64,000 bases of DNA from a virus. The stretch is taken from the IMG/VR virus record IMGVR_UViG_3300042898_004337, positions 5,607 to 69,606 of that record; one strand, 5' to 3'. Numbering within the stretch: the stretch's first letter is position 1; each line of letters begins with the position of its first letter. Below the pieces are notes generated by a model, which was not told the DNA's origin, did not search any database, and saw only the letters and a program-made list of their open reading frames with translations. The position numbers and the translations under genes were made by a program. This document shows positions 37,500 through 61,985 of the stretch, piece by piece.

Positions 37500-37503
37500 C
37501 TCT

Positions 37504-40588: not shown

Positions 40589-41091
40589 AAGAAAAATACA
40601 TAGACATGTATATGGATTGGGCTTTAAGAGCTGCTGAACTTAGCCACGCTCGTAGATTACAAGTAGGTGCTGTGATCGTCAAAGATGACAGTGTTATTAG
40701 TTACGGATACAATGGCATGCCCGCAGGTTGGGATAACAACTGCGAAGATCAAGTATGGGATTCGGGTGCAGGCGGTTGGCTCGACCCTGAAGAGTTTGAT
40801 GCCAAGTATCCATACGAAGGATGGCACGAAGGTGCTCAACGAAATGTTCGATACGGATTAAAAACTAAACCTGAGGTATTACATGCAGAATCAAATGCTA
40901 TTGCAAAATTGGCGAAGTCTAACAACAGTGGTGTTGGGGCTGACTTATTTGTTACTCACATGCCCTGTCTCAACTGTGCCAAGCTCATTTATCAGTCAGG
41001 CATTAGTCGTGTATATTATGGTGAAAACTATAGGGATGATTCAGGTGTCAAATTCCTTGAAAAGTCCGGAGTAACAGTAGAACAGATTTAA
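40585..41091 (+). CDS. dCMP deaminase (CMP/dCMP-type zinc deaminase)
   Basis: HAESNAI....PCLNCAKLIYQSGISRVYY zinc-binding motifs (H/C-A-E ... P-C-x-x-C). Confidence 0.75.
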   Translation: MKEKYIDMYMDWALRAAELSHARRLQVGAVIVKDDSVISYGYNGMPAGWDNNCEDQVWDSGAGGWLDPEEFDAKYPYEGWHEGAQRNVRYGLKTKPEVLHAESNAIAKLAKSNNSGVGADLFVTHMPCLNCAKLIYQSGISRVYYGENYRDDSGVKFLEKSGVTVEQI

Positions 41092-42557
41092 AGAGACATT
41101 AGTTTGTTGTAGTATTGAGATTTCAATAGCAAACTTCGACTGACTAATAGTGTATTGAGCTGATCAAAAGAAGTTTCTTTATCACTGATCATTTCAAATA
41201 TTTCTTCAATCGTATATCCTAGATTCATAATACGACCTATCCAGGTAGCGGCACTGAACTTACTACGTTGTTGTAGTCTAGGATCATTATATATCTTACG
41301 CACAAGGGCAGATGCTTCTGTAAAATTCATCTGATCACTTTCCCAGGGCTGATTGATTTTAATCGAGTATCCATACTTCTTAGGGTCTTGATCAATTTTG
41401 CTTGTACTTCTTCCGTCATGATCTGATCTGATGTACAATGGTAGAAATCCAAATACATCTAAAGAACATTCATTGCTTAACAAATAATCTAACGTCCTGT
41501 ATATACTATTTTCATCTTCACCAGGTAATCCTACAATAAAATTGCTACTGGTAATAATCTTACCCTTCCATAACTCTCCACAATAGGCTAGCGTCTCTTT
41601 AATACGCTTTTCTCCTAGACCTTTTCCTATTTTCTTTCCAGCGCGATCATTCATAGTTTCTATTCCGAATGCTAAACTAGCTGCCCCACTTTCTAATAGC
41701 ATTTCTCGCATCTCGGGAAACTTCCAAATCAAATCTAATCTTGCATAACTAGTGTATGAAATTTTAAAAGGTAAGTTGGTAAACACTCTATGGATCATTT
41801 CCATCTTAGGAAGACTTTCATTGATCAATTCGTCAGCAAACATATAGTGAGTTGTTCCAAAGAGTTCATAGTTTCTTATCAACTCTTCTTGCAAAACTTG
41901 TTCATCTTTTTGCCAATCGCCTACTTTTTTTCCTATTAGATCGAAGTGGCAAAATGCACATTGAAATATACAACCTCGAGCTATTTCTATAGGTAACGAT
42001 TCCCCTGTAAAAATAATATCCTGTGGCTGATATATAATGCTACTAGTAGCAAACTGCTCTTGAGTATAAAAATAATCACTGCCATCTATAACATAGCAAG
42101 GAGTAGTCTTTACAGTTTTTAAATCAGCGCCTGTAGATAGATGCTCTAGCAACTTTATTATAGCTACATCACCTTTGTTTATTACTACATAATCAACTCC
42201 CGACCAATATGAATTCAAGGTCATTCGTGCACCACCGAGACAAACTTTGACTTTTGAATTTTTAGATTTAGAGTACTTTACAATAGATACAAATTCTTCG
42301 GTGTCTCTTCCAAAATTTTTAACACTATTGTCTTCACGTTTTTCCATTAGTGTGCAGCTAAATCCAATTAGTAATGTCTCGTTAGTAACAAACTTATCAA
42401 CGATATTTGTTAATTGCTCATATGAATAAAAACTGAATAAGTCTATTACCTGACAAGAGTATCCTGAGTTTCTAATTTCAGTTGCTATTTTGTAAGTCCC
42501 GGCATATTTCCCGTAACCTATAGTATCTGCAACATCAGTGAATAATATTACTTCCAT
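41088..42557 (-). CDS. B12-binding radical SAM protein
   Basis: N-terminal Rossmann-like B12-binding region; GCIFQCAFC = CxxxCxxC; start of AT-rich island. Confidence 0.65.
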   Translation of the reverse strand: MEVILFTDVADTIGYGKYAGTYKIATEIRNSGYSCQVIDLFSFYSYEQLTNIVDKFVTNETLLIGFSCTLMEKREDNSVKNFGRDTEEFVSIVKYSKSKNSKVKVCLGGARMTLNSYWSGVDYVVINKGDVAIIKLLEHLSTGADLKTVKTTPCYVIDGSDYFYTQEQFATSSIIYQPQDIIFTGESLPIEIARGCIFQCAFCHFDLIGKKVGDWQKDEQVLQEELIRNYELFGTTHYMFADELINESLPKMEMIHRVFTNLPFKISYTSYARLDLIWKFPEMREMLLESGAASLAFGIETMNDRAGKKIGKGLGEKRIKETLAYCGELWKGKIITSSNFIVGLPGEDENSIYRTLDYLLSNECSLDVFGFLPLYIRSDHDGRSTSKIDQDPKKYGYSIKINQPWESDQMNFTEASALVRKIYNDPRLQQRSKFSAATWIGRIMNLGYTIEEIFEMISDKETSFDQLNTLLVSRSLLLKSQYYNKLMSL

Positions 42558-43153
42558 TTAATAGTAGTCCAGTCAAATGTAAAATTTGAATCTAATTTTT
42601 CGTAGATTACCCACTGAGGAGTATATTGAATTATTATCGGAAATTTAATTTCCTGTAAACCATTGTAAAAAATATGTTTGGGCAACCGACTGTTAATTCT
42701 TCCTGAGTTTTCTCCTAGCCGGTTACGCTTGAAAATTTGAATAATGTTTTTGTTATACTCATTAAACGATAATGCTATTATTTTTGCATTTCTATCTATT
42801 GCCCATTTTTTTTGTTCTGCTAAAAGATAGTCTCTATTCAATGTTAAATGGCGGTAATTTTTATTCACCCAAGTACGCACGCCTGCAATTACAATATCTT
42901 TACTAAATTCACTTATGTATACGCCGCTACATGCCACTATATTATTACCATCATAAAGGATATAGAAGTCACCGTTAACTCCATCAAACCGGTTAGTGTT
43001 TGTTAAAATATAAGATAGCGTATGACTGTTAGATTGCTGATCTTCTGTCCAAAGATTTATGCTTGCTAGCTGATCTATTTCAAGTGACTCTGTTTTTAAA
43101 AAAGTAAAAAATTCAGTATTGTCGATCAATTCTCTGTAACGTACAATTTTCAT
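42548..43153 (-). CDS. hypothetical protein (201 aa; possible acyltransferase-like)
   Basis: co-directional and overlapping with radical SAM gene. Confidence 0.4.
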   Translation of the reverse strand: MKIVRYRELIDNTEFFTFLKTESLEIDQLASINLWTEDQQSNSHTLSYILTNTNRFDGVNGDFYILYDGNNIVACSGVYISEFSKDIVIAGVRTWVNKNYRHLTLNRDYLLAEQKKWAIDRNAKIIALSFNEYNKNIIQIFKRNRLGENSGRINSRLPKHIFYNGLQEIKFPIIIQYTPQWVIYEKLDSNFTFDWTTIKWK

Positions 43154-43195
43154 AGGAATAAATTCAGTAGATAACTATACTTATGCTTCCTACAA

Positions 43196-44002
43196 GTGCA
43201 AGGAATATTTGTGTCCTTAAAATATTTAGTTCATAAATACAATATGTTTTCAGCAAGTGCAACCACAATTACCAAAGTTCAACTAGCCACAAGCCTATGT
43301 GCAATTATTGGATTGTTTTATTTTGATTTTACTTTTCAAAATATTCTAATAACAACTATAAGTTTTTATCTCTATAGTATTATAGGTGTAAGTCTTACGT
43401 TGCATAGGTACTATAGTCATAAATCTTTTGAATTTAACAGTAACCTGCTAAAATGGATCTGTACGTTGATTGCAATACTTACTGGTCGAGGAAGCCCCTT
43501 AGGTTGGGTATATGTGCATCGATTACATCATGCCTACTCAGATCAACATGAGGACCCGCATAGTCCTCATAACTTAGGATTTAAATTATTTGGATTTAAA
43601 CACATCGAAACTCATAGTGGTAAGATGAAAGTATTTTTAGTAAAAGAGCTAATGACCAAAGAACATCTCTTTATTAATAAATGGTATTTTGCTATAATAT
43701 TTACATGGTTGGTTTTTTTAAGTTTTATCAATATCGATTTAATTTATTTTACATGGGTATTACCTGTTATGTTAGTACAGCTAAGTCAAAACTGTTTTAA
43801 CTATTTTGCTCATATGCACGGACATAGAAACTTCGAAACTCGAGATACTAGTACTAATAACATCTGGTTATGGCCCTTTATACTCGGGGATGCCTGGCAT
43901 AATAATCATCATAAAAATCCTGGAAATTTTACCACTAAAATAAAATGGTGGGAAGTTGACTCATTAGGAAATTTTATTATTTTTATTAGAAAAAAATCAT
44001 GA
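43196..44002 (+). CDS. membrane fatty-acid desaturase (acyl-CoA/acyl-lipid delta9-type)
   Basis: His boxes HRYYSH, HRLHH, HNNHH in stearoyl-CoA desaturase-like arrangement; start may be ATG 43244. Confidence 0.6.
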   Translation: MQGIFVSLKYLVHKYNMFSASATTITKVQLATSLCAIIGLFYFDFTFQNILITTISFYLYSIIGVSLTLHRYYSHKSFEFNSNLLKWICTLIAILTGRGSPLGWVYVHRLHHAYSDQHEDPHSPHNLGFKLFGFKHIETHSGKMKVFLVKELMTKEHLFINKWYFAIIFTWLVFLSFINIDLIYFTWVLPVMLVQLSQNCFNYFAHMHGHRNFETRDTSTNNIWLWPFILGDAWHNNHHKNPGNFTTKIKWWEVDSLGNFIIFIRKKS

Positions 44003-44119
44003 TAGCACTAAACAATTTCATAGGGTATCAAATAAAGGTCGGCGCAAAGTCAGATATTTGCTATCATTCGGGTCAACTACAGAATCTTATAAATCGATAA
44101 AAAGTAAGTTTAATAATTA

Positions 44120-44713
44120 ATGATATTAGTTTGTCCGTTAGATATACCTAAAATTGTACCCAATGATTGGAATGAATGGTGGAGTACCTGGAAGACTGCT
44201 GATGTTATGCATAAAGCTATTAGGAACCACAACACCGTTTCGTCAAACTGGCGAGGCTTAGACTTATACAAAATTCGTGGCCATCCTACCAGTTATCAAG
44301 CACCATATGCTGAACAGAATCCAGTAGTGATAGACTTATGCAAACAAATTCAAGATTCAGTTAAATTTAAAATTGGACTTATCAGAGTGATAGAAAATTT
44401 AGAAACGATATCCCCCCATTCTGATAACACAAGAAATACCCCTAGTATACGAACATTCCTCTGGAACACTTATCAAGAACCTGTATGGAATTTTACAAAT
44501 GAAACTAGTTCCTATACCTTAACGATGCCAAATGATACTAACAGTTTTTATTATCTAGACGGCCCAGTAAAACATTCTTCCAAATATGATCCTAATTGTA
44601 GCAAGGGTCTATTAGCGGTATACGGAGAACCAAACAATGACTTCGAACATTTGATTAACCGTAGCTATTTAAAATATTACAATTATGCCTGGAGTACGCT
44701 ACAACAAGATTAA
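44120..44713 (+). CDS. hypothetical protein (197 aa)
   Basis: ORF track. Confidence 0.4.
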   Translation: MILVCPLDIPKIVPNDWNEWWSTWKTADVMHKAIRNHNTVSSNWRGLDLYKIRGHPTSYQAPYAEQNPVVIDLCKQIQDSVKFKIGLIRVIENLETISPHSDNTRNTPSIRTFLWNTYQEPVWNFTNETSSYTLTMPNDTNSFYYLDGPVKHSSKYDPNCSKGLLAVYGEPNNDFEHLINRSYLKYYNYAWSTLQQD

Positions 44714-44743
44714 ATAACTTAAAATAATAAGTTACATAACTTT

Positions 44744-45517
44744 ATGACAACATATCTATCATCTAGCACACGCGGTTCCCAACTATTCATGATTTTATCA
44801 TTACTAGGTACCATTTCTGGAATAACTTGGTATGGTCTAACGACTAACGCTGTATTGCTTATATTGTTAGGATATTTTTTATACGGTTGTTTGGGTATTG
44901 TCGTCACATACCATAGAAGCCTTACTCATAATAGCTATACTACATATCCTTTATTAACTAAAATTTTATCAGTGATGGGCTGTTTTGCAGGAACAGGAAG
45001 TCCATTAGCATGGGTCGCTATTCATATTAATCATCACTTAAAAAGTGACAAACCAAGTGATCCTCACAGTCCATTATATAAAGGCTTGAAAATCTTTACA
45101 CTTGATTACGTAAATGAAATTGATAGTAATACTAAATGGCGTATGAGAAATATAGTAACGGATAAATTTCAACAGTTTTTACACCGTTATTATTTTGCAA
45201 TTATTGCTGTGTATAGCATGATATTGTTTATGATTGGTGGATTTTATTTAATGATATTTTTACTTTGGGCACCGTCGCTGATTACTGGAATTATGAGTAA
45301 TGTAGTTAATTACGTAGGTCATAAACCTGATTGGTTAGGTGGATATCGTAGTTATAATATAAACGATCAAAGCACAAACAACTGGATATGGGCTATTCCT
45401 AGTTGGGGGGAATCGTGGCACAATAATCATCATCGATACCCTAAAGACTATATGTTCAAAAAGAAATGGTGGGAACTTGATATTGCTGGACTAATTATTA
45501 AGGTAATCAAAACATGA
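44744..45517 (+). CDS. membrane fatty-acid desaturase (second paralogue)
   Basis: His boxes HRSLTH, HINHH, HNNHH. Confidence 0.6.
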   Translation: MTTYLSSSTRGSQLFMILSLLGTISGITWYGLTTNAVLLILLGYFLYGCLGIVVTYHRSLTHNSYTTYPLLTKILSVMGCFAGTGSPLAWVAIHINHHLKSDKPSDPHSPLYKGLKIFTLDYVNEIDSNTKWRMRNIVTDKFQQFLHRYYFAIIAVYSMILFMIGGFYLMIFLLWAPSLITGIMSNVVNYVGHKPDWLGGYRSYNINDQSTNNWIWAIPSWGESWHNNHHRYPKDYMFKKKWWELDIAGLIIKVIKT

Positions 45518-46992
45518 ATTGTATTTTATTATACGGTAGTACCCCAATGCCACTACAAAAGCACGGCGGCGTATTTAGAATATCATCCGAACTGAGAAAG
45601 AATAATTATTCTACTGTGTGCATTGATCTAAGTGCATTTGAATATGTGAATAAACTAGAACAGCTAAAAGAAGTCTTAAAAAATTCAATATCATCAAGCA
45701 CATTGTGGGTAGGATTTAGTACTACATTTTTTGATAAACTTCTTGGATTAACGTTTAAATCTACTACAAACGATGAACTGTTTGTTAACTTTATACAATT
45801 TATCAAGAATTTAAATCCCAAAGTTAAAATAATATCAGGTGGGTCTAGATATTTTCCATTAGAACAATATGGAGTAAAGATATTCAAGAGCTATAGTGAC
45901 AAAGAAATTATAGAATTCACTGAATGGTGTTTGACAAACAAATCATCTAATATTTCTTTTCGTACTACATTAATTCAAGGTAGTGAATTTAAAGATTTTT
46001 CATCAAGTCAAATAACGTACACTAAAAATGATCTGATTAGTAATTTAGATGCATTGCCAATTGAGATAAGCAGAGGTTGCATTTTTAAATGTAAGTTTTG
46101 TGCATTCCCATTAAACGGAAAAACAAAAGGTGAGTGGATAAAACACGGAAATGTTTTATTAGATGAGTTAAATTATAATTATGAAAATTTTGGAATAACT
46201 TATTATACTTTTAGTGATGATACCTATAATGATAGTTTAGACAAGTTAAAATATTTACATGATAACGTATTTTCTAAACTTAAATTTAAAATTCATTTTT
46301 CTAGTTATTTGAGGATTGACTTACTAATGCGATTTCCAGAGTCTATCCCGTACTTAAAAGAGTCCGGGCTCACATCGGCAATGTTTGGTATTGAAAGTAT
46401 TAATCACCAATCTGCTAAATCTATTGGTAAAGGTTTAAATCCCTACGATCAATTAGAATTTATAAAAGAATTAAAACAAAATGAATTCAAAGACGTAATA
46501 TTAAATTCAGGATTTATATTAGGATTACCACATGATACGCTTGATACTTTTACCGAACTTGAAGAATTTTTATTCTCAGACAAAAATTATTTAGATAGCT
46601 GGTATGTAAATCCCTTAGGTATTTCTCCTCTTAGTAAAACTAATAAAAACTTCCACTCTGAATTTGATATTAATCATGATAAGTATGGTTATGAAATTAC
46701 AGATGAAGGATGGTATAATAAAAATACAGGGTTAAGTTACTCACAGTGCTTTGATATTGCTCACAATATAACAGAAAAATCTAACAAGTTTTCAAAATTT
46801 AAATTCGGTGGATTTACTTATAATTACCTAAGACGATTCGGAATTCCAGATAAGGAATTATTGAATTTATCCAGAAAAGAAATAATATCTAAATATAATA
46901 TTCCCTCGTTGATTAAGAAAGAATGCGAAATATACGTAAATGATATGTTAGAACTATCAAAGACTTTTAACTTACAACACAAATCAGATTAG
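45514..46992 (+). CDS. B12-binding radical SAM protein (second paralogue)
   Basis: GCIFKCKFC CxxxCxxC; architecture parallels 41088-42557. Confidence 0.65.
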   Translation: MNCILLYGSTPMPLQKHGGVFRISSELRKNNYSTVCIDLSAFEYVNKLEQLKEVLKNSISSSTLWVGFSTTFFDKLLGLTFKSTTNDELFVNFIQFIKNLNPKVKIISGGSRYFPLEQYGVKIFKSYSDKEIIEFTEWCLTNKSSNISFRTTLIQGSEFKDFSSSQITYTKNDLISNLDALPIEISRGCIFKCKFCAFPLNGKTKGEWIKHGNVLLDELNYNYENFGITYYTFSDDTYNDSLDKLKYLHDNVFSKLKFKIHFSSYLRIDLLMRFPESIPYLKESGLTSAMFGIESINHQSAKSIGKGLNPYDQLEFIKELKQNEFKDVILNSGFILGLPHDTLDTFTELEEFLFSDKNYLDSWYVNPLGISPLSKTNKNFHSEFDINHDKYGYEITDEGWYNKNTGLSYSQCFDIAHNITEKSNKFSKFKFGGFTYNYLRRFGIPDKELLNLSRKEIISKYNIPSLIKKECEIYVNDMLELSKTFNLQHKSD

Positions 46993-47000
46993 AATATTCA

Positions 47001-47918
47001 ATGCAAAGATTTAATAACTGGATGAGTTATAATTTTGACGGTATTGAATACGGTGTTAAAAAAGATAAACATAGTATTATATCTATAAATTTTAACAACA
47101 AGATCAGTACTCCGTTAACTTCTTATAAAGACGCACTCATTAATAATGCACGTATCATGCGAGATTCTTATAAAGAACCGTTTGACGTATGCCTTAGTGG
47201 AGGTACAGACAGTGAAATAGTTGTCAGAACATTTAAGAGTGCTGGTATTAAACATAATACTTTTATCTTTAGATTAGAAAATAACTACAATATTCGCGAC
47301 GTAAACAATGCTGTAAAATTATGCAACGAACTAAACATACCTTACAATATCGTCGATTTTAACGTAGAAAAATTCTTTAAAGAAGAAGCATTGGAATTGT
47401 TTAATAGTACACTGATACCAATGGCAGGGAGACTGCCTAGACTTAAATTTATTGACTACTTAGACAACATACCTATCTTCTGCGACGGCGAACCTTACTG
47501 GCGTCGTGAATTAGAAAATGATTACAGTAAAAAGTCTCGTTGGCTATTTCAATTACACGAGGATGGATATTCTGTATCTACCTACGCTAAAAATATAGGG
47601 AGAACTATTATAGGTGATTGGTACGAATATACTCCTGAAATAATTATGTCTTATAAAGAACTTCCATTAGTTAGGCAACTACTAAATGATGAGCACTTGG
47701 GCAAGATTAGTAATATCAGCAGTAGAGTTGCTATACACAAATACATTTGGCCTACAATGGAATATAAACCTAAACTAGTAGGATACGAGGGATTAGATAA
47801 TCCTGTAGCTCATAGACCTCAATTTATTAATGATTTTTATAACAAATATATGAGAGACATCGACGATACTACAATTAAATATTCTGAAGAAGAATTAAAC
47901 CGTTTGTTATTACAATAA
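47001..47918 (+). CDS. PP-loop ATP pyrophosphatase (asparagine synthetase C-domain/QueC-like)
   Basis: DVCLSGGTDSEIV = SGGxDS PP-loop. Confidence 0.55.
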   Translation: MQRFNNWMSYNFDGIEYGVKKDKHSIISINFNNKISTPLTSYKDALINNARIMRDSYKEPFDVCLSGGTDSEIVVRTFKSAGIKHNTFIFRLENNYNIRDVNNAVKLCNELNIPYNIVDFNVEKFFKEEALELFNSTLIPMAGRLPRLKFIDYLDNIPIFCDGEPYWRRELENDYSKKSRWLFQLHEDGYSVSTYAKNIGRTIIGDWYEYTPEIIMSYKELPLVRQLLNDEHLGKISNISSRVAIHKYIWPTMEYKPKLVGYEGLDNPVAHRPQFINDFYNKYMRDIDDTTIKYSEEELNRLLLQ

Positions 47919-47941
47919 ATATTTGTAGAAAAAGAAAATAC

Positions 47942-48784
47942 ATGTTCAACAATCCACCAAAAATTTTAGCCCATACATCTGCCCTCGATGCTGGCAATTT
48001 TGTTGTACCAGATTATATCCTTAATAAAAATCAAGATAAAATAAATCTTTTTCGACGCCATTGCCCCCATCGTATGTATCCGCTAGCAGAGCCGGGTTCA
48101 ATAGTTGAAAATATAGTATGCAAGTTTCATGGATTTGAATGGAATAAGGACGGAGATCCTATAAACAACGATCGAAAAATTGCATGTGGATCTGCACAAA
48201 CTGGAAAAAGTGGATTAATATTTAAAAACTTTTTAGAACCAGATCACCAATGGGTCAACGATCTTGCAACAGAGACTAATCTAGAATATAGCCATTCTAG
48301 ACACGGAACAAGTGAAAAGGGTAGTTGGCTTTGGATGATGGAAATACAGGCAGACCTACTACATATTAGACAAGGTGAAGATGTAGTACATCCTGAATTA
48401 GCAGAAATTACAAATTTAAATGATATTGAAATGTATGACGGTGACGGATGGATTTTGCAAACCTGTTCAACAGGCTGGTGGTTATTTGTTTATCCATATA
48501 CGTTTATAGAATGGAGCCCGGGGTGTGTAGCATTAAATTATACTACCCCGCACAATACAGAAAGTGAATTTGGTTTTAATTGGATCACACAATATTATTT
48601 CGATAAAACTACCAATGTAGGACAAAGAGAAAAATTTGAACACTATATAGAACCTGTTTTTCGAGAAGATGTTGCTGCGATTGAATCTCAGAAAGGACCG
48701 CACTATCCGCTCACACGATCTTCTAATAGACTAGAGGATCATTGTGTGCATTATGGCAACTGGTTAGGCTCTAATTTAAACTAA
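47942..48784 (+). CDS. Rieske [2Fe-2S] domain protein (non-heme iron oxygenase-like)
   Basis: CPHRM...(17 aa)...CKFHGF = CxH...CxxH Rieske motif. Confidence 0.6.
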   Translation: MFNNPPKILAHTSALDAGNFVVPDYILNKNQDKINLFRRHCPHRMYPLAEPGSIVENIVCKFHGFEWNKDGDPINNDRKIACGSAQTGKSGLIFKNFLEPDHQWVNDLATETNLEYSHSRHGTSEKGSWLWMMEIQADLLHIRQGEDVVHPELAEITNLNDIEMYDGDGWILQTCSTGWWLFVYPYTFIEWSPGCVALNYTTPHNTESEFGFNWITQYYFDKTTNVGQREKFEHYIEPVFREDVAAIESQKGPHYPLTRSSNRLEDHCVHYGNWLGSNLN

Positions 48785-50038: not shown

Positions 50039-50046
50039 ACAAGATT

Positions 50047-50958: not shown

Positions 50959-51868
50959 TTGATAATAGAGATCTAGCGTCTTCCGGAGTTGCAACATTTC
51001 CTCCTAGCAACTCGATAATATTAACAGCCATTTCAACTAGCTCTGCATTTGATTCAGCTAATCTTCCTCTTTTTGTATAGATATTATCTTCTAATCCCAC
51101 TCTTACATGCCCACCTAATATAGAAGTTTGAGCCAATATAGGCATTTCAGTTTTTCCTATTCCGAATGCACTCCATACTGCGCTCGAAGGCAACTCTCGT
51201 TGTGCATACATCAATGTATTAGTTGATGCAGCCCAACCATATTTGATCCCCATAGCAAATTGCCAAAATGGGTTTTTTTCAATTATTCCTTCTTGATAAA
51301 ATTCGTTGGCCAACACTAAATCACCACTGTCAAATAATTCTAGCTCAGGTTTTACGCCTGCATCTTGAATCAGTTTAATCATTTCTTTTATAATTAGTTT
51401 ATGATTGATTCTAACACCGTTGCTAGATTGATTCATTGTATTAAAGTCTATACTACATAAATCGGGACGTAATTTTACAACATGATTCACTCTCTCAGCG
51501 GCTCCGAGCAATAGGCTATGATGACTTCCTTGCGCTAAATTACCAGGAGTAGGAAACCATTGAGCACCAGGTCCCGTTGTTAAATTTATTAAAACTTTGT
51601 CATTTTTTTCTTTAATTAAACAAACAACTTCTTCATATAATTTAAAACTCATGCTAGGATTGCCTGTCTCAGGATCTCTTACATGTAAATGGACAATAGC
51701 AGCACCGGCTGATGCTGCCCCTAACGCCGAGGTGGCAATTTCTACAGGAGTAATTGGCAGATAAGGAGTTTGATCTTTTCTAGTCGACGCTCCGGTTATT
51801 GCACATGTTATTATAGTTTTCAAATGGTCATTCCTCCGTCCAATACAATAGTATTTCCAGTCATCCAT
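50951..51868 (-). CDS. beta-keto acid cleavage enzyme (BKACE/DUF849, 3-keto-5-aminohexanoate cleavage enzyme-like)
   Basis: N-terminal IITCAITGA and TIM-barrel-like length about 300 aa. Confidence 0.5.
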   Translation of the reverse strand: MDDWKYYCIGRRNDHLKTIITCAITGASTRKDQTPYLPITPVEIATSALGAASAGAAIVHLHVRDPETGNPSMSFKLYEEVVCLIKEKNDKVLINLTTGPGAQWFPTPGNLAQGSHHSLLLGAAERVNHVVKLRPDLCSIDFNTMNQSSNGVRINHKLIIKEMIKLIQDAGVKPELELFDSGDLVLANEFYQEGIIEKNPFWQFAMGIKYGWAASTNTLMYAQRELPSSAVWSAFGIGKTEMPILAQTSILGGHVRVGLEDNIYTKRGRLAESNAELVEMAVNIIELLGGNVATPEDARSLLSII

Positions 51869-52557
51869 GTCATCTTGGTAATAATACTTTCTATCACATC
51901 AACTACATCTTTTCCTGTGCCAATTCGTCTTAAGGGTAACGACTGTGCTATTTTGTCATTATATTCACTGGGTTTATTAGCGCCTGCTACAGCCTTTTCT
52001 AAGTAGCCGGGCGCAATTCCAACAACCCTAATACTCGGAGAAAGGTGTAATGCTAATGTTTGGGTCAGTATGTTAATACCTGATTTCGAAGCAGCATAAA
52101 TCGGGTTACTTCGACTTGCCCGTAAACTTGATGTCGATGACACATTAATAATTAGCGGACTACTTGAGTTATCTAAAAGTTCTTTACATTCTCTTATTAA
52201 TTTAAAAGATCCTTTTAGATTTGTATCAATAATATTATCTAGTATTTCATCTGTAATCGATTCAATATTTCCTAGTTTAATATCATGTGTAACACCTGCA
52301 CTGTTGATCAATACATCTATTCTTCCATATTCTTTACTAATATGCTGTACAACATCTTTTATCATAGTTGTATTTTTAATATCGCACTGAACTGCTATGC
52401 AGTTTATTGAAATATTTTTTAAAATATTAGTTGCTTCAGTAGGGTCCTGTCTAGTTAAACAAATAACAATAGCACCTAAATTTGATAATCTAGATGCTGC
52501 TTCTAATCCTATTTGTCCCATTCCGCCAGCAATCAAAACAATTTTATTTTTTAACAT
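51820..52557 (-). CDS. short-chain dehydrogenase/reductase (SDR)
   Basis: IAGGMGQIG glycine-rich NAD(P) loop; YAASKSG = YxxxK active site. Confidence 0.65.
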   Translation of the reverse strand: MLKNKIVLIAGGMGQIGLEAASRLSNLGAIVICLTRQDPTEATNILKNISINCIAVQCDIKNTTMIKDVVQHISKEYGRIDVLINSAGVTHDIKLGNIESITDEILDNIIDTNLKGSFKLIRECKELLDNSSSPLIINVSSTSSLRASRSNPIYAASKSGINILTQTLALHLSPSIRVVGIAPGYLEKAVAGANKPSEYNDKIAQSLPLRRIGTGKDVVDVIESIITKMTWMTGNTIVLDGGMTI

Positions 52558-53885
52558 ATATATTTTTCAGCTTCTTTTGTTAAAGACAATTTGTCAATTT
52601 TTCCTATACTATTATAAGGAAAATCTTTTACAACCCAAATTTTTCTCGGGCAATGACTAAACGGCATCTTGCTTCTAACATAATTTTCTAAATCTAATTG
52701 AGAAATATTATGTTGAGATTTTACAAAAGCATACGGTTTAAATCCTTTTATTTTGTCTTGTACCTTTATTACCGTTGCAGATTCAACACCTTCATATTGT
52801 TCTAAAATTTTTTCTATTTCTGACGGATAAATTTTTACTCCGCCACATGCAAACATATCATCAAATCGGCCTATGAAATAATAAAATCCATCTTTATCTA
52901 TTTCAAATAGATCATTAGTAACAAAAAAACCATCTTTAGTAATTTTAGATTTATCTAAATCAGTGTATCCAATTAACATAGAAGGGCTATTTATTTCAAG
53001 TATATTATTGATCAATCTATATTCTATATCAGCAAACGGATATCCAACACTTGTTTCCGGAGTAGGTAAAAACGGATGATTTCCAAATAAACTAGAACCA
53101 ACTTCAGTAAGACCGTAGCCTAGTCTAATAGTCGCATTTGGAAATATTCTTTTAGCTTTTTGAAAAGTGGAATAACTTGTCGGAGCACTTGTCAGACGAA
53201 CTAATTTTACAGTATCAAACATTTTATTATTGTTTAACATATTAATTACCGTCGGAACACACACGATATTATTAATGGCATATGAATCTATAAACGTCTC
53301 AAATGAATTTATACTAAATTTCTCAGCAGTAAATAATGTTCCGCCATTTGCTAAACTTAATAAACAATTAAATAAACCGTTTAAATGGTACAAGGGACTA
53401 CTGATTAATTTTAAACTTTTAGTTCCTCGAGGACTTACAGTTCTTTCTACATTAATTTTTAAATTATGGGGTACAATTACTCCTTTAGATTTGATTGATC
53501 CAGAAGTGAATAAAATAGTGCATGGATCTCTACCATTTCTTTCAACAATTGGTATATCGTTAATCTCTTGAAATATTTTAGAAGACAACCTATAGTCTAT
53601 ATCTAAATCAGAAAGTACTTGCTTTTTCTTTTCTTTTGATAAATTATTATTAACAAGGACACTGATATTACCTGACTTTAACACTCCTAGATAAGCAGCA
53701 ATAAATTCAACAGGGTTAGATATATCAAGAAATATTTTTTTATTTTTTAGATCGATACTACTAAGATAGTGGGCATAGTTTCCAACTAAACTGTTTAATT
53801 CTTTATATGTTAATGACTGTGCTCCGTTAGATATTGCAAGTTTATTTAAATTTTGATAGTTAATTACAGAACACAAATTATACAT
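52551..53885 (-). CDS. AMP-dependent synthetase/ligase (acyl-CoA ligase-like adenylating enzyme)
   Basis: TSGSIKSKGV resembles the (S/T)SG(S/T)TGxPKG AMP-binding motif; GYGLTE block. Confidence 0.55.
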   Translation of the reverse strand: MYNLCSVINYQNLNKLAISNGAQSLTYKELNSLVGNYAHYLSSIDLKNKKIFLDISNPVEFIAAYLGVLKSGNISVLVNNNLSKEKKKQVLSDLDIDYRLSSKIFQEINDIPIVERNGRDPCTILFTSGSIKSKGVIVPHNLKINVERTVSPRGTKSLKLISSPLYHLNGLFNCLLSLANGGTLFTAEKFSINSFETFIDSYAINNIVCVPTVINMLNNNKMFDTVKLVRLTSAPTSYSTFQKAKRIFPNATIRLGYGLTEVGSSLFGNHPFLPTPETSVGYPFADIEYRLINNILEINSPSMLIGYTDLDKSKITKDGFFVTNDLFEIDKDGFYYFIGRFDDMFACGGVKIYPSEIEKILEQYEGVESATVIKVQDKIKGFKPYAFVKSQHNISQLDLENYVRSKMPFSHCPRKIWVVKDFPYNSIGKIDKLSLTKEAEKYIC

Positions 53886-53896
53886 AAGGTATTTAT

Positions 53897-54163
53897 ATGA
53901 TTAAAAAATTTGCAATTATAGATAAGGCGACTGGTCTTATCTGTTATATAATAAATGAATATATAACTGTCTCAGACGACAACATTATAATTGAAATAAA
54001 AGAAACCAGTGAGTTTTTTAAAGTTGTTAACAATAAAAATATTATCGAATACCATCTTACGTTGAGCTCAAGGGGATTGGAAATTTTATTAGAAAATGAA
54101 ATTAGTGCAGAATTAAAAGAAAAAAAACAAAGAGTTATTAATTATTATGAAACGAAATTTTAA
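53897..54163 (+). CDS. hypothetical small protein (88 aa)
   Basis: ORF track; possible precursor/carrier-sized. Confidence 0.35.
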   Translation: MIKKFAIIDKATGLICYIINEYITVSDDNIIIEIKETSEFFKVVNNKNIIEYHLTLSSRGLEILLENEISAELKEKKQRVINYYETKF

Positions 54164-55031
54164 TTTTAATAAATTAACGTGTCAATTTACTTATACAGTT
54201 AACGAGTTTGATCCAATTATTACAAACAACTACCTCGAGGCTATTGATTTATCAGTTACAGACTTATATAATGATGCTAAATTAAAAAACATCAATCAAA
54301 TAGGATTGTGCCTTTCGGGTATAGATAGTGAATTAATTGCTAATTCTTTATATAAACTAAAAGTTCCTTGCGAATATTTTTTCCTCCATATTCGAAATAT
54401 AAATGACAATATGCTCGAAGGAGCAAAATTAATTTCTCAGTACCACAACACAAAACTTAACATTTTCGAAATCACAGTTAATGACATCTTTGATTATATT
54501 ATCGACGAAATATTTCAAATTTGTCCTGTTATGTTTCCGGGATATGTGGTAGGTGCAATACTAACTAAATTTATACCAAAAGAGTTTTATATCATAATGG
54601 GAGAAGGGGATATAGAAAAAAATAATGTCAACAAATATCTTACAATTTATAATAATTCGGTTAAAGATTTTGATAATCAATACATCTACATACCTTTGCA
54701 CCTCTCAGAAATTTTATACAATCAATGTTTAACTCATTATAATAAACAAGGAGAAGGTAATTTTTATAGTAGAAATTTTAATACTTGGTATCATATTTTA
54801 AAAGATCCAAGATTAAGAACTAATTTCAAATTTTTTTATGAACCAAAGTCGAGCATAATATTTCCCGATTATCATCATCAATCTGTTTATAAGAAAAAAA
54901 CTGATAACTTTGTATTTGGTAAAAATCCAGATGTTGCAACAAAAATCATGGACCACCTACAAAAAACAGCTAGTGCTAATTGGAGCCCTTATATAGGAAC
55001 CACACTTAGAATACCTAAAAACTTACTATAA
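54147..55031 (+). CDS. PP-loop-like protein (degenerate SGxDS)
   Basis: LCLSGIDSELI. Confidence 0.35.
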   Translation: MKRNFNFNKLTCQFTYTVNEFDPIITNNYLEAIDLSVTDLYNDAKLKNINQIGLCLSGIDSELIANSLYKLKVPCEYFFLHIRNINDNMLEGAKLISQYHNTKLNIFEITVNDIFDYIIDEIFQICPVMFPGYVVGAILTKFIPKEFYIIMGEGDIEKNNVNKYLTIYNNSVKDFDNQYIYIPLHLSEILYNQCLTHYNKQGEGNFYSRNFNTWYHILKDPRLRTNFKFFYEPKSSIIFPDYHHQSVYKKKTDNFVFGKNPDVATKIMDHLQKTASANWSPYIGTTLRIPKNLL

Positions 55032-55042
55032 TAAATATTGCG

Positions 55043-55645
55043 ATGATCGGTATATACTCAAACAACTTAGAAAGATTTCTACTCGTTAAAGACGACAGAT
55101 GGATATCTTTACAAACTGGTAAAATTCTTTCATCCAAATTTTTATTGTCTTTATTTGAATTTAATAATAACAGTATCAATAATGATAATTGCAGCACATG
55201 GGGTATAAAAGATCCTAGTATTGCAATGCTTGATAAACCAATTCCTCGAATAAAACATATCGAAGATCAACTTTTTGATACTCGAGAACGATCACCGGAT
55301 ATTCCTCAGAATGTTTTTTTAGAATATCAGAATTATTGCAATTTTGCATATAATGTTGTGTTGTCTTCTAGACTAACTGATGCAAGTTTAAACTCTAGCG
55401 ATCAAAAATATATATTATCCTTAGTTAGCGATGATATTTCACTATCAACATTATCCGACGACACCGGCCTGGCTAAACCTTTTCTCTGGCATATAGATCA
55501 TATTTTATATTTTTCTTCATCTAGGCAAGAGGCTTTAGAAAAAATATCAAAAATTTTCAAAGAAAACACCAATATGAGTTCATCATTATATTCATATAGG
55601 CAAACTTTCTACAACTATTTAAGAAAATATGAAACTACTATATAA
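55043..55645 (+). CDS. hypothetical protein (200 aa)
   Basis: ORF track. Confidence 0.4.
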   Translation: MIGIYSNNLERFLLVKDDRWISLQTGKILSSKFLLSLFEFNNNSINNDNCSTWGIKDPSIAMLDKPIPRIKHIEDQLFDTRERSPDIPQNVFLEYQNYCNFAYNVVLSSRLTDASLNSSDQKYILSLVSDDISLSTLSDDTGLAKPFLWHIDHILYFSSSRQEALEKISKIFKENTNMSSSLYSYRQTFYNYLRKYETTI

Positions 55646-56936
55646 AAGCACTTCGGTTAATTCTTACAGCGTTGCAACAACTCTGTCTAAATTTTTTGAC
55701 GAGCTCGACGAAGGAGGAAGATTTTATTGTAATATTGCAAGAGCAAATCCACCCGCTGCATATTTGTCAAGAGCCGGAGAATGGAGTGATCCTTGGGATA
55801 CGGTAGTACCGTCCGGATGGGAGATTCCACTTTTTGATTTAAAGTTCAATCTATCATTTGAAGAAGTAACAGACCGCAGGGCAATGGATATAAAAAATAT
55901 TATCGATCAAACAGGTAAAAACTGTGTTGTATTTTATTCTGGAGGAATAGACAGTACTGTTGTAATGGCCTCGTTAATAAAAAATCTAGGACAAGAATAT
56001 TTAGAAAAAATAATAATTTCAATGAGTGCTGATTCTATTATAGAAAATCCATATTTCTATACAAATCACATCGAAGGTAAATTTAAAATTATCGATTCTT
56101 CTAAAAATTTTTATAGTGATTTTATAAAAAATAAACAACATTTTTGTATATCAGCTGATCTAGGTGATTTCATTTACGGAACAGAATTGGGGGTTAAACT
56201 GTATCCTCAAATGAAATACCTTGAAGAAACTATGCAGACTGCCGGTAGAAAAAATCTCAGTCATCTTTACAACAAGGTAAGTGATTCAAACACGCACTAT
56301 TCTGAGTATCGAGATATTTTAATATATTATTTTAATACTGCATTAAAGAGAGGCATAAACTCTTTAAAAACTATACCCTACGTTCCACAAAATATAAGTT
56401 CTGAAAATTCTCACGATGCAAATTTTGGACATTTATTTTATGAAAAAATACACAACAATATAAAAAGTGTCAATGTACCGATTTACAGTTTGCATGATTT
56501 CTTCTGGTGGTCAATGTTTAATCCTAGATTTGTTTGGGGTGCAGTTCGTCCTGCAATGGTTTACGGACTTAACGATAATTTTAAATCAATATTAACTGAA
56601 GACATAATAAGCTGGTTCGGTTCTTTAGATTATCAACAATGGAGTATGCATAATAACAATAACGGGGAAAAACTTAAAGGCATTACACAAAGTACATACA
56701 AGTGGGCATCAAAATGTTATCTGCACAAATTTGATAAAAACGATTTTTATTTTTTTAATAAAATAAAAATGCCATCTATGCCAGTAATTATTGCTCGAGT
56801 ATACAAACAAAATTGGAAGGATCTAGATACTAGATGGGCGCTGGACGAAAATTATCGAGTTTTAAAAATAGATCAACCCGAAGTCAAATGTTACTTTGAA
56901 GCCGGGTTGAAGAACTATAAAATAGATTGGGTTTAG
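55629..56936 (+). CDS. PP-loop ATP pyrophosphatase (asparagine synthetase-like)
   Basis: VVFYSGGIDSTVVMA PP-loop. Confidence 0.5.
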   Translation: MKLLYKSTSVNSYSVATTLSKFFDELDEGGRFYCNIARANPPAAYLSRAGEWSDPWDTVVPSGWEIPLFDLKFNLSFEEVTDRRAMDIKNIIDQTGKNCVVFYSGGIDSTVVMASLIKNLGQEYLEKIIISMSADSIIENPYFYTNHIEGKFKIIDSSKNFYSDFIKNKQHFCISADLGDFIYGTELGVKLYPQMKYLEETMQTAGRKNLSHLYNKVSDSNTHYSEYRDILIYYFNTALKRGINSLKTIPYVPQNISSENSHDANFGHLFYEKIHNNIKSVNVPIYSLHDFFWWSMFNPRFVWGAVRPAMVYGLNDNFKSILTEDIISWFGSLDYQQWSMHNNNNGEKLKGITQSTYKWASKCYLHKFDKNDFYFFNKIKMPSMPVIIARVYKQNWKDLDTRWALDENYRVLKIDQPEVKCYFEAGLKNYKIDWV

Positions 56937-57913
56937 TGTTTCTTAATATTGTCTAACAAGCCTTTACTGAAGAAATTTTCGTACTTTGAATAAATTTCTT
57001 TTGATAACTCTTTAAACGTTTCTAGATCTTTCTGAGATAAATCAACTACTTCGATTCCGTCTGCTCGTGCTTTATCAATTGTAGGACTAACATCATCTAC
57101 ACTGATTTTTCTTTCGAATCGGCCAGCTTCTACTGCTGCTTCCTTTAATAGATTCTGCATCTCGTAATCTAAACTATTAAAGAATTTAGTGTTGATAATA
57201 ATATTAGTTAATAACAGACTGTGACCTGTGTTAAAAATACTTTTAGCAACTGTGTTTTGATCGCAACCGTAAATTCTAGGCCAAGAGCTTTCACCTGCAT
57301 CAATTCTACCATCTTTTATTGCAGGGGTAATTTCTTCAACATCCATTACAATAGGATCTGCCCCTAGTGCTTTAAATGTATCAAAGCATACAGGACTGTT
57401 AGATACTCTAACCTTAGCACCTTTTAAGTCACTTAACGAAGTAATCTTTTTATTAAACGGGAGATTCTTATATCCTCCACTATAGGTAAATGCCAAACCT
57501 TTGATATTACTGTTAGTTTTAGAATAACCGTTTAATAGTTGATCACCAATAGGTCCTTCAAATACTCTAGCTGCATGATCGTGATCGTTGAATAAAAATG
57601 GCATGTCCAATGCATTTAGGTCTTTGTTAAACTTACTCAAGACGTAGGTATACATTTGACTCATTTCAATTTCATCTTTATCCATCAAATCAAGTAAGTC
57701 ATGCTTGGTTATTTTTTTACCGTTTTGATATTTTTCAGCATATTCACTAAGCATTAATACTTCAATTTTTAATCTTCCTGGAGCTCTTTCTTCTACTATC
57801 TCAGCAAATTTTTCAGCAGCTCTAATAAAAATTTCAATAGGTTCGTGTGCAAGCACCCATCTAACTAGTTTGGCGGTCATATCAATCTCCTTTATACCAC
57901 TCATATTTAGCAT
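56933..57913 (-). CDS. TRAP-type DctP-like solute-binding protein (no signal peptide detected)
   Basis: PFLFNDHDHAARVFEGPIG...KGLAFTYSGGYKNL resembles DctP family core. Confidence 0.4.
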   Translation of the reverse strand: MLNMSGIKEIDMTAKLVRWVLAHEPIEIFIRAAEKFAEIVEERAPGRLKIEVLMLSEYAEKYQNGKKITKHDLLDLMDKDEIEMSQMYTYVLSKFNKDLNALDMPFLFNDHDHAARVFEGPIGDQLLNGYSKTNSNIKGLAFTYSGGYKNLPFNKKITSLSDLKGAKVRVSNSPVCFDTFKALGADPIVMDVEEITPAIKDGRIDAGESSWPRIYGCDQNTVAKSIFNTGHSLLLTNIIINTKFFNSLDYEMQNLLKEAAVEAGRFERKISVDDVSPTIDKARADGIEVVDLSQKDLETFKELSKEIYSKYENFFSKGLLDNIKKH

Positions 57914-57949
57914 AAATAAAATTGATTACTACCGTTTCTAGGAGAATTT

Positions 57950-58324
57950 ATGATAATTTTTAAAAGAGTATTTAATAGGCCAATGCCAGAAATTTTCTGG
58001 CATTATGAAGTAATGCAGCCAGACGATGAGTGGTTAACTCGTTGGCATTATTACATTGGAGAAGAAAAGATCACTAAATGGGAGCATAATGTGAGTGAAG
58101 ACCAATTGACTTTAAATTATTATGCCGAATGGGAAAATTTAGAGGAATTTCACAAATACGATCACGATACGGAAATGGATCCATTTTGGATCATACGAGA
58201 CGAGTATAATGCTTTAGTAGGCATTACCGCAGGTGCAAAAATTATTGAAATATCAAGCGAAGACGGAACTGTACAAGAAATTATTCTGCCCGAAGGTAAT
58301 TGGAACATATCAGACATACTTTAA
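57950..58324 (+). CDS. hypothetical protein (124 aa)
   Basis: ORF track. Confidence 0.4.
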   Translation: MIIFKRVFNRPMPEIFWHYEVMQPDDEWLTRWHYYIGEEKITKWEHNVSEDQLTLNYYAEWENLEEFHKYDHDTEMDPFWIIRDEYNALVGITAGAKIIEISSEDGTVQEIILPEGNWNISDIL

Positions 58325-58331
58325 AAGAGGG

Positions 58332-59243
58332 TTATTGTATTGCCTGAGAATGGCGTTTTCTAATATTTGAAATAGAATTAATCCTATCATTAAAAAAATC
58401 TTCAGCATTAATTGAGTCAAACACTGGACTTCTCATATCACTAAGTTTCATTATCTCATCATTGCCTACTATTTTAGTAGATTTGTCTAAAATTCTTCCT
58501 ATAGTTTTTCGTTTTGCTTCGCTCATTTGTCTATTCGAAACAATCACATTAAACACTGACGGAACATTTATACCCTGTTCAGATAAAGTTTTTATAGATG
58601 GTTCGTAGAGAGATCTTGTCGTACAACTAAGTCCTAAAATTTTAATATTCGAATTCTTTTGTTTAAAATTTTGAACTGTGGATAGTCGTTCTATAGTAAA
58701 ATTAACTCCATTATTTCCTGCAAGATTGACAAATGCATCGAAGTTTGATTTAAATGGAACTAATCTAACTGGAATATTATATTTTCTACCAATTTCTAAT
58801 GCTGTAAGATGAGTAGCATTTCCAATTCCCACTGTTCCGACTACGATTTCGGACGTGTGTTGCAGACTCGAAACACCAACAGATTGTATTCCGTTTGACG
58901 ATACAACAGCCCAACATGCATCTCCCATACCGTGGATAGCAACATAATCATTTCTTTTAATTAAATTTTTCTCAACATTGTCAACAAATGCAGCATGTAC
59001 AATTGCTAGAGCAGACGACGGATTTATATCCGTTTCTTTTAATGCAACTATTCCCTGGCCGCCAGGTTTTATTTGAATTTTAAAAATATAGTCTTGTTGA
59101 GATGAGTTAGCTTTTGTAAGTACTTTTTCTAAAGAATTGTGCCCGCTGTGACCTGCACTATAAGGTGAGTTTATCCAAATTAGTTCTGTAGAATTAGCTA
59201 TAGAAGTGATAAAAATTAAAATTGTAAAAAAAATAAATCGCAT
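58332..59243 (-). CDS. TctC/Bug-family periplasmic solute-binding protein (second)
   Basis: signal peptide; WINSPYSAGHSGHN, KPGGQGIVA, GTVGIGNATHL...VPFKSN family blocks. Confidence 0.5.
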   Translation of the reverse strand: MRFIFFTILIFITSIANSTELIWINSPYSAGHSGHNSLEKVLTKANSSQQDYIFKIQIKPGGQGIVALKETDINPSSALAIVHAAFVDNVEKNLIKRNDYVAIHGMGDACWAVVSSNGIQSVGVSSLQHTSEIVVGTVGIGNATHLTALEIGRKYNIPVRLVPFKSNFDAFVNLAGNNGVNFTIERLSTVQNFKQKNSNIKILGLSCTTRSLYEPSIKTLSEQGINVPSVFNVIVSNRQMSEAKRKTIGRILDKSTKIVGNDEIMKLSDMRSPVFDSINAEDFFNDRINSISNIRKRHSQAIQ

Positions 59244-59401
59244 AGTGTCCTCTATAAATGTACTGCATTGTATTTAATGCTACTATATATTAAGGAAAAT
59301 TTATGCCGTTAATAATTATTAGACCGTATCCCTAAACAATACTAAGCTACAATACTGAGGAAAAGCAGATAGTGATAACTAAATATATCACAAGGTGAAA
59401 T

Positions 59402-60136: not shown

Positions 60137-60167
60137 CATGCAATGTTAATACTGCTATACTGGCAGT

Positions 60168-61225: not shown

Positions 61226-61274
61226 TAATGTATTATAATATACAAGTCATCCACGACAATAACTCGGAGAATAA

Positions 61275-61973: not shown

Positions 61974-61985
61974 TTAAGGATAAAA

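Follow-up and report, generated by a model that had tools for sequence, protein, structure and literature searches.

The 64,000-nt stretch of DNA analysed here (positions 5,607 to 69,606 of the IMG/VR virus record IMGVR_UViG_3300042898_004337; hereafter the window) belongs to a T4-like freshwater myophage (genome ~240 kb) of the cyano-/pelagimyophage type and carries a strain-variable flexible island at 41,037-59,370. We found that the roughly 20 genes of this island are one co-inherited, phage-endemic enzyme module composed of conserved sub-units, passed among phages and almost absent from bacteria. The likeliest reading is that the module alters fatty or carboxylic acids through an undescribed route. 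Tentatively, and based on the protein families present, it may encode a pathway in which acyl or carboxylic-acid substrates are tailored with the help of adenylation.

Boundaries, composition and exchange of the island

The region is a true strain-variable flexible island, because a near-identical genome of 239.9 kb exists without it. In the locus taken from that genome (L090), positions 33-8908 aligned by blastn to window positions 32161-41036 at 98.4% identity and positions 8979-13609 to 59371-64000 at 99.35%, and only ~70 bp lie between the dCMP deaminase gene and gene g244 where the window has 18.3 kb. A model that read the letters of the window without database searches (the sequence-only reading) had proposed a horizontally acquired, AT-rich island at 41088-59243 whose genes lack Shine-Dalgarno (SD) sites; both its discreteness and its limits agree with this comparison. 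The composition also bears it out and is not uniform across the window: in sliding windows the G+C fraction (GC) was ~0.40-0.47 across most of the stretch and 0.28-0.34 from about 41 to 59 kb, with 0.320 in 41037-59370 vs 0.416 (27200-41036), 0.396 (1-18000) and 0.400 (59371-64000). GC at third codon positions was 0.248 in the island vs 0.353 in the backbone. An SD-like motif of at least 4 nt at -20 to -4 preceded 2/20 island genes vs 20/50 backbone genes (Fisher p=0.021), with 0.8 and 8.2 expected, respectively, from mononucleotide shuffles.

Up to ~40600, close to where the dCMP deaminase gene begins, the window was 100% identical to the island-free genome; inside that gene, to ~41060, identity fell to 55-97% per 40-nt block (mostly 65-90%). 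What was exchanged is thus the island together with a deaminase allele of foreign origin, the tract stopping shortly before g244, whose product differs by 1 substitution over 233 shared residues. Considering this divergent allele, the lack of terminal repeats at the island and the absence of mobility domains (integrase, transposase) in Pfam scans of its proteins, the simplest mechanism is exchange between related phages by homologous recombination from dCMP deaminase to g244. A g244 homolog is located directly downstream of related modules in three other loci (L015, L062 and L128), and in one phage (L137) a related module adjoins dCMP deaminase. The exact sequence of one island protein, rSAM_B, was found on 7 contigs while the flank proteins were indexed in 77-85 blocks, which suggests that the island-bearing variant is a minority; exact-protein look-ups recovered it in at least 4 samples, one of which holds it on a 65.5-kb JGI contig. 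Scans for sigma-70 promoters, terminators and T4 late promoters (TATAAATA) stayed at chance level, the last motif occurring 7 times across the window vs 7.9 expected. One T4 late-promoter-like TATAAATA lies at 53890-53897 on the minus strand, with the ligase gene starting only a few bases further downstream.

Recurrence of the module

The survey covered ~120 related loci, including 80 fetched radical S-adenosylmethionine (rSAM) loci, and adjacency was counted over 60 distinct locus types. Around the rSAM genes the same families recurred at 30-75% amino acid identity in shuffled order (as in L023, L015, L004 and L009): desaturases, the PP-loop proteins PP305, PP417 and PP435, the Rieske protein, TctC- and DctP-type binding proteins, and the uncharacterised proteins unk197, unk200 and unk201. 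A canonical co-directional operon was revealed in L128-L152, with the order Rieske-PP305-ligase-SDR-BKACE-unk200-PP435-TctC-DctP (SDR, short-chain dehydrogenase/reductase; BKACE, beta-keto acid cleavage enzyme). A BKACE scan of metagenomes returned 27 loci, the longest contig measuring 345 kb. The ligase, SDR and BKACE genes followed each other in at least 21 of them, preceded by Rieske and PP305 and usually followed by unk200 and PP435, TctC and DctP; the window holds the same operon set with the ligase-SDR-BKACE trio inverted. A lone bacterial insertion of this trio, unique to the present phage, had been considered and was overturned by these 27 loci.

The strongest neighbour pairs were Rieske-PP305 (15/15), desaturase-unk197 (7/7), ligase-SDR (18/20), BKACE-SDR (19/23) and unk200-PP435 (17/21), and PP435 followed BKACE-unk200 in 14 loci. 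PP417 and TctC were adjacent in 13 cases (24 PP417 and 25 TctC genes), desaturase and rSAM in 10, and the unk201 acetyltransferase and rSAM in 5/12; homologs of the second TctC-like protein (41-45% identity) follow PP435 in 7 loci. Binding-protein genes touched a PP-loop gene in 15/21 cases vs 44/320 for other genes, with a p value of 2e-8 that is merely indicative because the loci are related. In one locus (L092), three PP417 paralogs are interleaved with three TctC-like genes, and neither rSAM nor desaturase is present. Module genes were AT-richer than their neighbours in 29/33 loci. Several related modules contain further genes: acyl carrier protein (ACP; PP-binding domain, 3e-15) in 6 loci, directly beside the desaturases in two independent lineages, an AcpS-type phosphopantetheinyl transferase (PPTase) in 1 locus, AspH-like cupins, a further rSAM type, GNATs and QueC-like proteins. 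No ketosynthase was seen.

The module is composed of four sub-units: (i) two desaturases and unk197, followed by a B12-type rSAM and by PP305 with the Rieske protein; (ii) the GNAT protein followed by the second B12-type rSAM; (iii) PP417 with a periplasmic TctC; and (iv) ligase, SDR, BKACE, unk200 and PP435 with TctC/DctP. The recurrence of conserved pairs and of a co-directional operon agrees with the earlier suggestion of an uncharacterised tailoring cluster: its enzymes belong together and are not neighbours by accident.

In its distribution the module is phage-endemic. rSAM_B had 307 relatives in IMG/VR viral contigs and at least 1,394 in a set of 5.8 billion proteins. Among 50,697 deposited isolate phages, megablast with the island gave no match, tblastn found no homolog of rSAM_B or PP305, and the desaturases gave matches of 24-28% at best. 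A profile scan of 185,579 species genomes returned 35 weak rSAM matches, the best on short contigs of metagenome-assembled genomes (MAGs), and clear bacterial matches came only from Enhygromyxa salina (26-27%) and a Burkholderiales MAG (28%). Peptide scanning of the same 185,579 species found no close relative of the BKACE, whose relatives in the 27 metagenome loci share 55-66% identity. Of the earlier proposal that a biosynthetic module had been acquired, the horizontal exchange stands, but what is seen is a module shuttling among phages and no recently captured bacterial operon.

At 7665-12148 of the Enhygromyxa salina locus (L100), the rSAM homolog, the nearest one from an undoubted bacterium (27% identity), adjoins a full-length AsnB homolog and a DUF3050/heme-oxygenase-like di-iron enzyme. 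This locus may be an uncharacterised bacterial counterpart, echoing the rSAM/AsnB-like pairing of the phage module.

Table 1. Genes and other features of the window (positions counted from its first nucleotide; aa, amino acids; TM, transmembrane).
Feature	Position	Strand	Evidence or remark
Heme oxygenase	1707-2243		Backbone auxiliary gene
Ferredoxin-dependent bilin reductase	2224-2895		Backbone auxiliary gene
Curli secretion CsgF/CsgG	4774-6238		Backbone auxiliary genes
CHASE2-guanylate/adenylate cyclase, 687 aa	10350-12413		Backbone auxiliary gene
AspH-like gene	15649-16524		Window version of variable spot 15606-17433
Nitroreductase	16525-17289		Window version of variable spot 15606-17433
Dual-specificity phosphatase-like gene	27896-28363		
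AAA_33 kinase-like gene	28364-28828		
2-oxoglutarate (2OG)-Fe(II) oxygenase	29816-30424		
HD_4 (RelA/SpoT-type HD) gene	30495-31031		
dCMP deaminase, left anchor	40585-41091	+	Pfam/PHROG; divergent allele, within exchanged tract
Flexible island	41037-59370	.	blastn against island-free relative; 18.3 kb replaced by ~70 bp
rSAM_A, class-B-like (B12-binding-type) radical SAM	41088-42557	-	Radical_SAM 2e-13; CIFQCAFC at 196
unk201, GNAT N-acetyltransferase-fold, partner of A-type rSAM	42548-43153	-	
Des1, predicted membrane Delta9-type fatty-acid desaturase	43196-44002	+	FA_desaturase 6e-16; HRYYSH/HRLHH/HNNHH; TM segments
unk197, desaturase-associated	44120-44713	+	No Pfam/PHROG; beside desaturase in 7/7 locus types
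Des2, predicted membrane Delta9-type fatty-acid desaturase	44744-45517	+	FA_desaturase 2e-19; His boxes; 4 TM-like segments
rSAM_B, class-B-like radical SAM	45514-46992	+	Radical_SAM 7e-15; CIFKCKFC at 189
PP305, PP-loop ATPase	47001-47918	+	SGGTDS at 66
Rieske [2Fe-2S] oxygenase-like	47942-48784	+	Rieske 1e-8; CPH...CKFH; weak SxtT/DdmC similarity
PP417, asparagine-synthetase-fold PP-loop enzyme, glutaminase-less	48785-50038	+	
TctC1, Bug/TctC-type periplasmic carboxylate-binding protein	50047-50958	+	TctC 2e-8; BugD 2f5x 1e-10; signal peptide
BKACE	50951-51868	-	PF05853 1e-89; PDB 9zsc 1e-79
SDR, FabG-like dehydrogenase/reductase	51820-52557	-	adh_short 2e-41
Adenylate-forming acyl-CoA/ACP ligase (MenE/FadD-like)	52551-53885	-	AMP-binding 8e-34; MenE 3ipl 2e-27
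unk88, small ORF	53897-54163	+	No family match; only on this phage's own contigs
PP294, degenerate PP-loop paralog	54147-55031	+	SGIDS at 57; joined to PP305 superfamily by iterative hidden Markov models (HMMs)
unk200, upstream partner of PP435	55043-55645	+	No Pfam
PP435, PP-loop ATPase paralog	55629-56936	+	SGGIDS at 104; weak DndC/LarE/NadE N-terminal matches
DctP-type solute-binding protein, leaderless	56933-57913	-	DctP 8e-56 (190 bits); PDB 4xfe 5e-32
unk124, recurrent small module protein	57950-58324	+	No family match; 17-18 loci by HMM
TctC2, Bug/TctC-like with signal peptide	58332-59243	-	TctC 2e-5, below cut-off; aligns by family HMM
g244, HExxH protein, right-hand anchor	59402-60136	+	Near-identical in island-free genome

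Protein families of the island

PP305, PP417, PP435 and PP294 merged into one divergent superfamily with iterative HMMs, and on these profiles the four make up a single phage-specific superfamily. Four PP-loop proteins had been called before; three carry SGGxDS and PP294 the degenerate SGIDS. None of them has a GATase or Asn_synthase Pfam match. PP417 has the SGGxDS motif and the synthetase-domain fold of asparagine synthetase B, its fold being nearest to AsnB, TsnB9 and beta-lactam synthetase, at 9-11% identity to that family. Its N-terminus of ~90 aa is not a glutaminase, the PP-loop motif and D/K/E residues are invariant, and the family numbers 1,789 clusters with no Pfam or PHROG family. 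Profile matches of PP305 were confined to the N-terminal PP-loop of NadE, MnmA and TtuA. A scan of viral contigs with PP435 gave no confirmed match, the method being constrained by word limits.

Both rSAM proteins contain CxxxCxxC and the radical SAM core, with PF04055 above its cut-off. They are 37% identical to each other, and the start of rSAM_B overlaps the Des2 stop. The sequence-only reading had named them two paralogous B12-binding enzymes; the paralogy and the motif hold, and the B12-binding domain does not pass threshold: rSAM_A matched it at 2e-4 (PF02310, 21.7 bits, under the 32.1 cut-off), and rSAM_B had no PF02310 match. A PhpK-family model spans residues 23-424 of rSAM_A, but for all named class-B subfamilies considered (PhpK, HpnJ, ladderane lipid rSAM and BchE) both proteins remained below the curated NCBIfam cut-offs, the best scores being 78 bits vs 600 for PhpK and 67 vs 360 for ladderane. 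The candidate assignment of unk201 as a lipid-type N-acyl amino acid synthase was not supported; it is a generic GNAT.

Des1 and Des2 share 32% identity, and each contains the FA_desaturase domain, three His boxes and TM helices of a Delta9 desaturase, as had been claimed for two paralogous membrane desaturases. Des2 aligned over its full length to SCD1 (4ymk, 8e-12). Domain searches also reproduced the earlier Rieske, BKACE, SDR and AMP-dependent ligase calls. The BKACE matched PF05853 over 273/274 profile positions and resembles 3-keto-5-aminohexanoate-cleavage-type enzymes; it scored below every NCBIfam equivalog cut-off.

Three orphan binding proteins are encoded, and no TctAB or DctQM membrane subunit was found in the window, where the desaturases are the only island products with multiple TM segments; this matches the earlier description. 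TctC1 exceeded the TctC cut-off (34.7 vs 27 bits) and has an N-terminal hydrophobic leader. The DctP open reading frame (ORF) begins ~15 aa ahead of the mature domain, and four inspected homologs (L128, L135, L140 and L144) are also leaderless, starting ~10-15 residues before it, while the TctC-like proteins adjoining DctP retain their signal peptide. A cytoplasmic binding protein of the tripartite ATP-independent periplasmic (TRAP) type is unusual.

Proposed pathway and alternatives

All roles in the following scheme are assigned from family or fold. The TctC/DctP-like proteins would bind carboxylic or fatty-acid substrates, the periplasmic TctC-likes working with tripartite tricarboxylate transporter (TTT) permeases of the host and the leaderless DctP-like protein staying in the cytoplasm. 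The ligase would adenylate the substrate to give a CoA or ACP thioester, and the glutaminase-less asparagine-synthetase-fold enzymes would form amides. The SDR may interconvert beta-hydroxy and beta-keto intermediates and the BKACE may exchange C2 units with acetyl-CoA; the membrane desaturases would desaturate, and the Rieske protein hydroxylate, the acyl intermediate. Radical C-methylation or rearrangement is the predicted task of the class-B rSAMs, and N-acetylation that of the GNAT. As a net result, the envelope of the infected cell would acquire an altered acyl/amide lipid or metabolite. Acyl chemistry is supported by ACP beside the desaturases in two lineages, by the single AcpS-type PPTase and by the alignment of Des2 with SCD1, which strengthens the acyl-chain tailoring suggested earlier; amide chemistry is supported by the fold of PP417 and its invariant PP-loop motif and D/K/E residues.

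Several points weigh against this scheme. The window contains no ACP, PPTase, ketosynthase or permease, and the B12-binding domain is merely sub-threshold. To our knowledge, the BKACE members characterised to date are all catabolic, and the binding proteins suit uptake for catabolism equally well. The adjacency statistics were drawn from related, non-independent loci. In other phages the rSAM family is also found solitary or as part of DNA-modification cassettes, so that the remaining module genes may be dispensable for it.

A rather improbable alternative is a nutrient-scavenging catabolic module, in which the binding proteins would raise uptake of hydroxy- or keto-carboxylates (carnitine-like or beta-hydroxy acids) through host TTT/TRAP permeases, and SDR, BKACE and ligase would convert them to acetoacetate and acyl-CoA for energy; the Rieske protein would be a demethylase or hydroxylase, and desaturases and rSAMs passengers. 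The tight ligase-SDR-BKACE-(unk200-PP435)-TctC-DctP operon, the type of BKACE and the matches of DctP and TctC to carboxylate-binding proteins all fit it, and there is precedent, such as phage PstS, for orphan binding-protein auxiliary metabolic genes (AMGs). But a leaderless DctP, as in the window and the four inspected phage homologs, cannot serve periplasmic uptake, no close cellular donor operon was found, unlike for typical catabolic AMGs, and the four amide-synthetase-like paralogs, the two B12-type rSAMs, the GNAT and the ACP/PPTase of relatives are left unexplained. It is unlikely that the island is only a mosaic of unrelated auxiliary genes gathered at a recombination hotspot, each with its own independent task (membrane fluidity for the desaturases, uptake for the binding proteins, another for the rSAM). 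Gene order is indeed shuffled among phages, the rSAM is a singleton elsewhere, and T4-like pelagi-/cyanomyophages possess hypervariable islands in which rSAM cassettes occur along with desaturases and AspH-like genes (PMC7029224; the Mosig region); however, even at low identity the families are found together again and again, in conserved pairs and in a co-directional operon whose stops and starts overlap, and they share one compositional signature, being AT-richer than neighbours in the loci counted above.

Decoration of a modified phage base (thymidine or 7-deazaguanine) by the rSAMs, PP-loop amidoligases and GNAT appears very unlikely. It was suggested by 9 loci in which the rSAM has an amino-acid:DNA transferase (ADDT; PF18724, 1e-20) on one side and P-loop nucleotide kinase 3 on the other, with a g244 homolog coming next, by the position of the island next to dCMP deaminase with GTP cyclohydrolase I 2 kb downstream, and by GNAT and rSAM enzymes known in thymidine hypermodification (PMC8989533). 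But ADDT and kinase families gave no tblastn match in the window, the isomerase of phage M6 is a different (SPL-like) rSAM class, and DNA chemistry has no place for membrane desaturases, secreted binding proteins, BKACE, ACP or a CoA ligase. The earlier suggestion of a RiPP (ribosomally synthesised and post-translationally modified peptide) or lasso-type cluster, with B12-rSAM C-methyltransferases and Asn-synthetase-like cyclases acting on a precursor peptide, we consider hardly credible: the rSAMs match RiPP C-methyltransferase NCBIfam models weakly and far under the cut-off, and the fold of PP417 is Asn-synthetase-like, but the precursor search was negative, no small ORF being shared by divergent module loci and unk88 being confined to this phage. 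Moreover, intergenic space is minimal, and the island proteins have no Asn_synthase, PqqD/RRE or peptidase Pfam match, which leaves the suggestion unsupported.

The 9 ADDT loci (L053, L060, L061, L063, L065, L067, L068, L074 and L076), with the rSAM at ~10001-11450 of each, come from other T4-like phages and look like a thymidine-hypermodification cassette, whose rSAM class differs from that of the SPL-like M6 isomerase.

Comparison with known systems

Carbapenem/thienamycin-type clusters combine several class-B rSAMs, an AsnB-like beta-lactam synthetase and a GNAT. The enzyme mix of the module is similar, with Fe/2OG-type oxygenases in relatives, but the resemblance is one of logic only: there is no crotonase (CarB/ThnE) homolog and no sequence-level membership. 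Bacterial BKACE pathways, on which Bastard and colleagues reportedly worked in 2014, are said to include lysine fermentation (Kce) and dehydrocarnitine cleavage. As in these pathways, a TIM-barrel BKACE adjoins a dehydrogenase that would supply the beta-keto acid; unlike them, the phage BKACE sits in an operon that also encodes PP-loop enzymes, a Rieske protein and binding proteins. The phage PP-loop enzymes differ from AsnB, beta-lactam synthetase and TsnB9 in lacking the N-terminal glutaminase, in failing the Pfam Asn_synthase model, and in being multi-paralog and phage-only, each paralog paired with a binding protein, a Rieske protein or unk200.

Cyanophage-encoded Delta9 lipid desaturases (vFAD) show experimentally validated activity (Roitman et al. 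2018, PMC5776448). Like these, the island desaturases are membrane DesC/SCD-type enzymes with three His boxes and auxiliary genes of T4-like aquatic myophages. In contrast to vFAD, two or three paralogs occur at each locus of the module. Their translation is coupled to that of a B12-type rSAM, unk197 is their constant neighbour and, in some relatives, ACP lies beside them. Hypervariable islands of pelagimyophages and cyanomyophages contain rSAM 'cassettes', stearoyl-CoA desaturase, Asp/Asn beta-hydroxylase-like genes, acetyltransferases and glycosyltransferases with function unassigned (Zaragoza-Solas et al. 2020, PMC7029224). The present island, like those (including that of Pelagibacter phage Mosig), is strain-variable and lies between conserved T4-like modules. 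It differs in its site between dCMP deaminase and g244 instead of the tail-fibre region, in rSAM and PP-loop families absent from all isolate phages searched, and in the additional ligase-SDR-BKACE operon and paired binding proteins. With thymidine hypermodification cassettes (Lee et al. 2021, PMC8989533) it shares the rSAM family, which in other T4-like phages lies between ADDT and P-loop kinase and is followed by g244; unlike these cassettes, the window has no ADDT or kinase, and the other island genes encode membrane, periplasmic or acyl enzymes. Literature searches on BKACE or TctC in phages, or on this gene combination, gave nothing relevant, and no description of the module, the PP-loop superfamily or the paired binding proteins was found.

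The phage genome around the island

The assignment to a T4-like phage is based on rIIA, rIIB and the 40 tRNA genes in the window, which also encodes dCMP deaminase, and on T4-like relatives, although rIIA identity to the closest isolate relatives is merely ~28-37%. Proteins of the window flanks recur on a 239,901-bp relative with HSP20, ClpS, heme oxygenase, bilin reductase, CsgF/CsgG and the CHASE2-guanylate cyclase. In the window the backbone auxiliary genes lie at 865-12413, HSP20, ClpS and a FecR-like protein among them. A further small variable spot was found at 15606-17433, where a near-identical 240-kb genome (L089) holds a 335-aa rSAM, two ORFs and another AspH-like gene. The array of 40 tRNA genes (18279-27086) covers nearly every amino acid. 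Within it, 75 nt (~24380-24454; tRNA-Met at 24378-24454) share 89% identity with the DNA that underlies the integrase gene in Pseudomonas phage phi3. Four named genes occupy 27896-31031, between the tRNA array and rIIA (Table 1). Sugar and nucleotide genes bracket the island site (37504-40588 and 60392-61973) and are kept in the island-free genome; these comprise GT1 and GT2 glycosyltransferases, DUF6445, UDP-glucose dehydrogenase and GTP cyclohydrolase I.

Biological meaning

The auxiliary genes of aquatic phages are usually single host-derived enzymes, whereas here a conserved multi-enzyme system of 12-20 genes was revealed, the signature families of which (B12-type rSAM and AsnB-fold PP-loop proteins) have their members almost exclusively in uncultured phages. 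For biochemistry, the analysis defines several new families of enzymes and the unusual cytoplasmic DctP-like protein, and the otherwise near-identical genomes with and without the island constitute a natural experiment on its function. We might speculate, as a possibility that we still hold doubtful, that the module represents the first widespread phage-native family of biosynthetic clusters exchanged among aquatic myophages. Such clusters would be adenylation- and carrier-protein-dependent, would unite B12-type rSAMs, AsnB-fold amide synthetases each with a ligand-binding protein, desaturases, BKACE and GNAT, and would yield, in the course of infection, a specialised acyl metabolite or envelope lipid that contains an amide. 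If a lipid or metabolite is indeed made, phages would own a specialised metabolism with which they remodel the freshwater and marine cells they infect.

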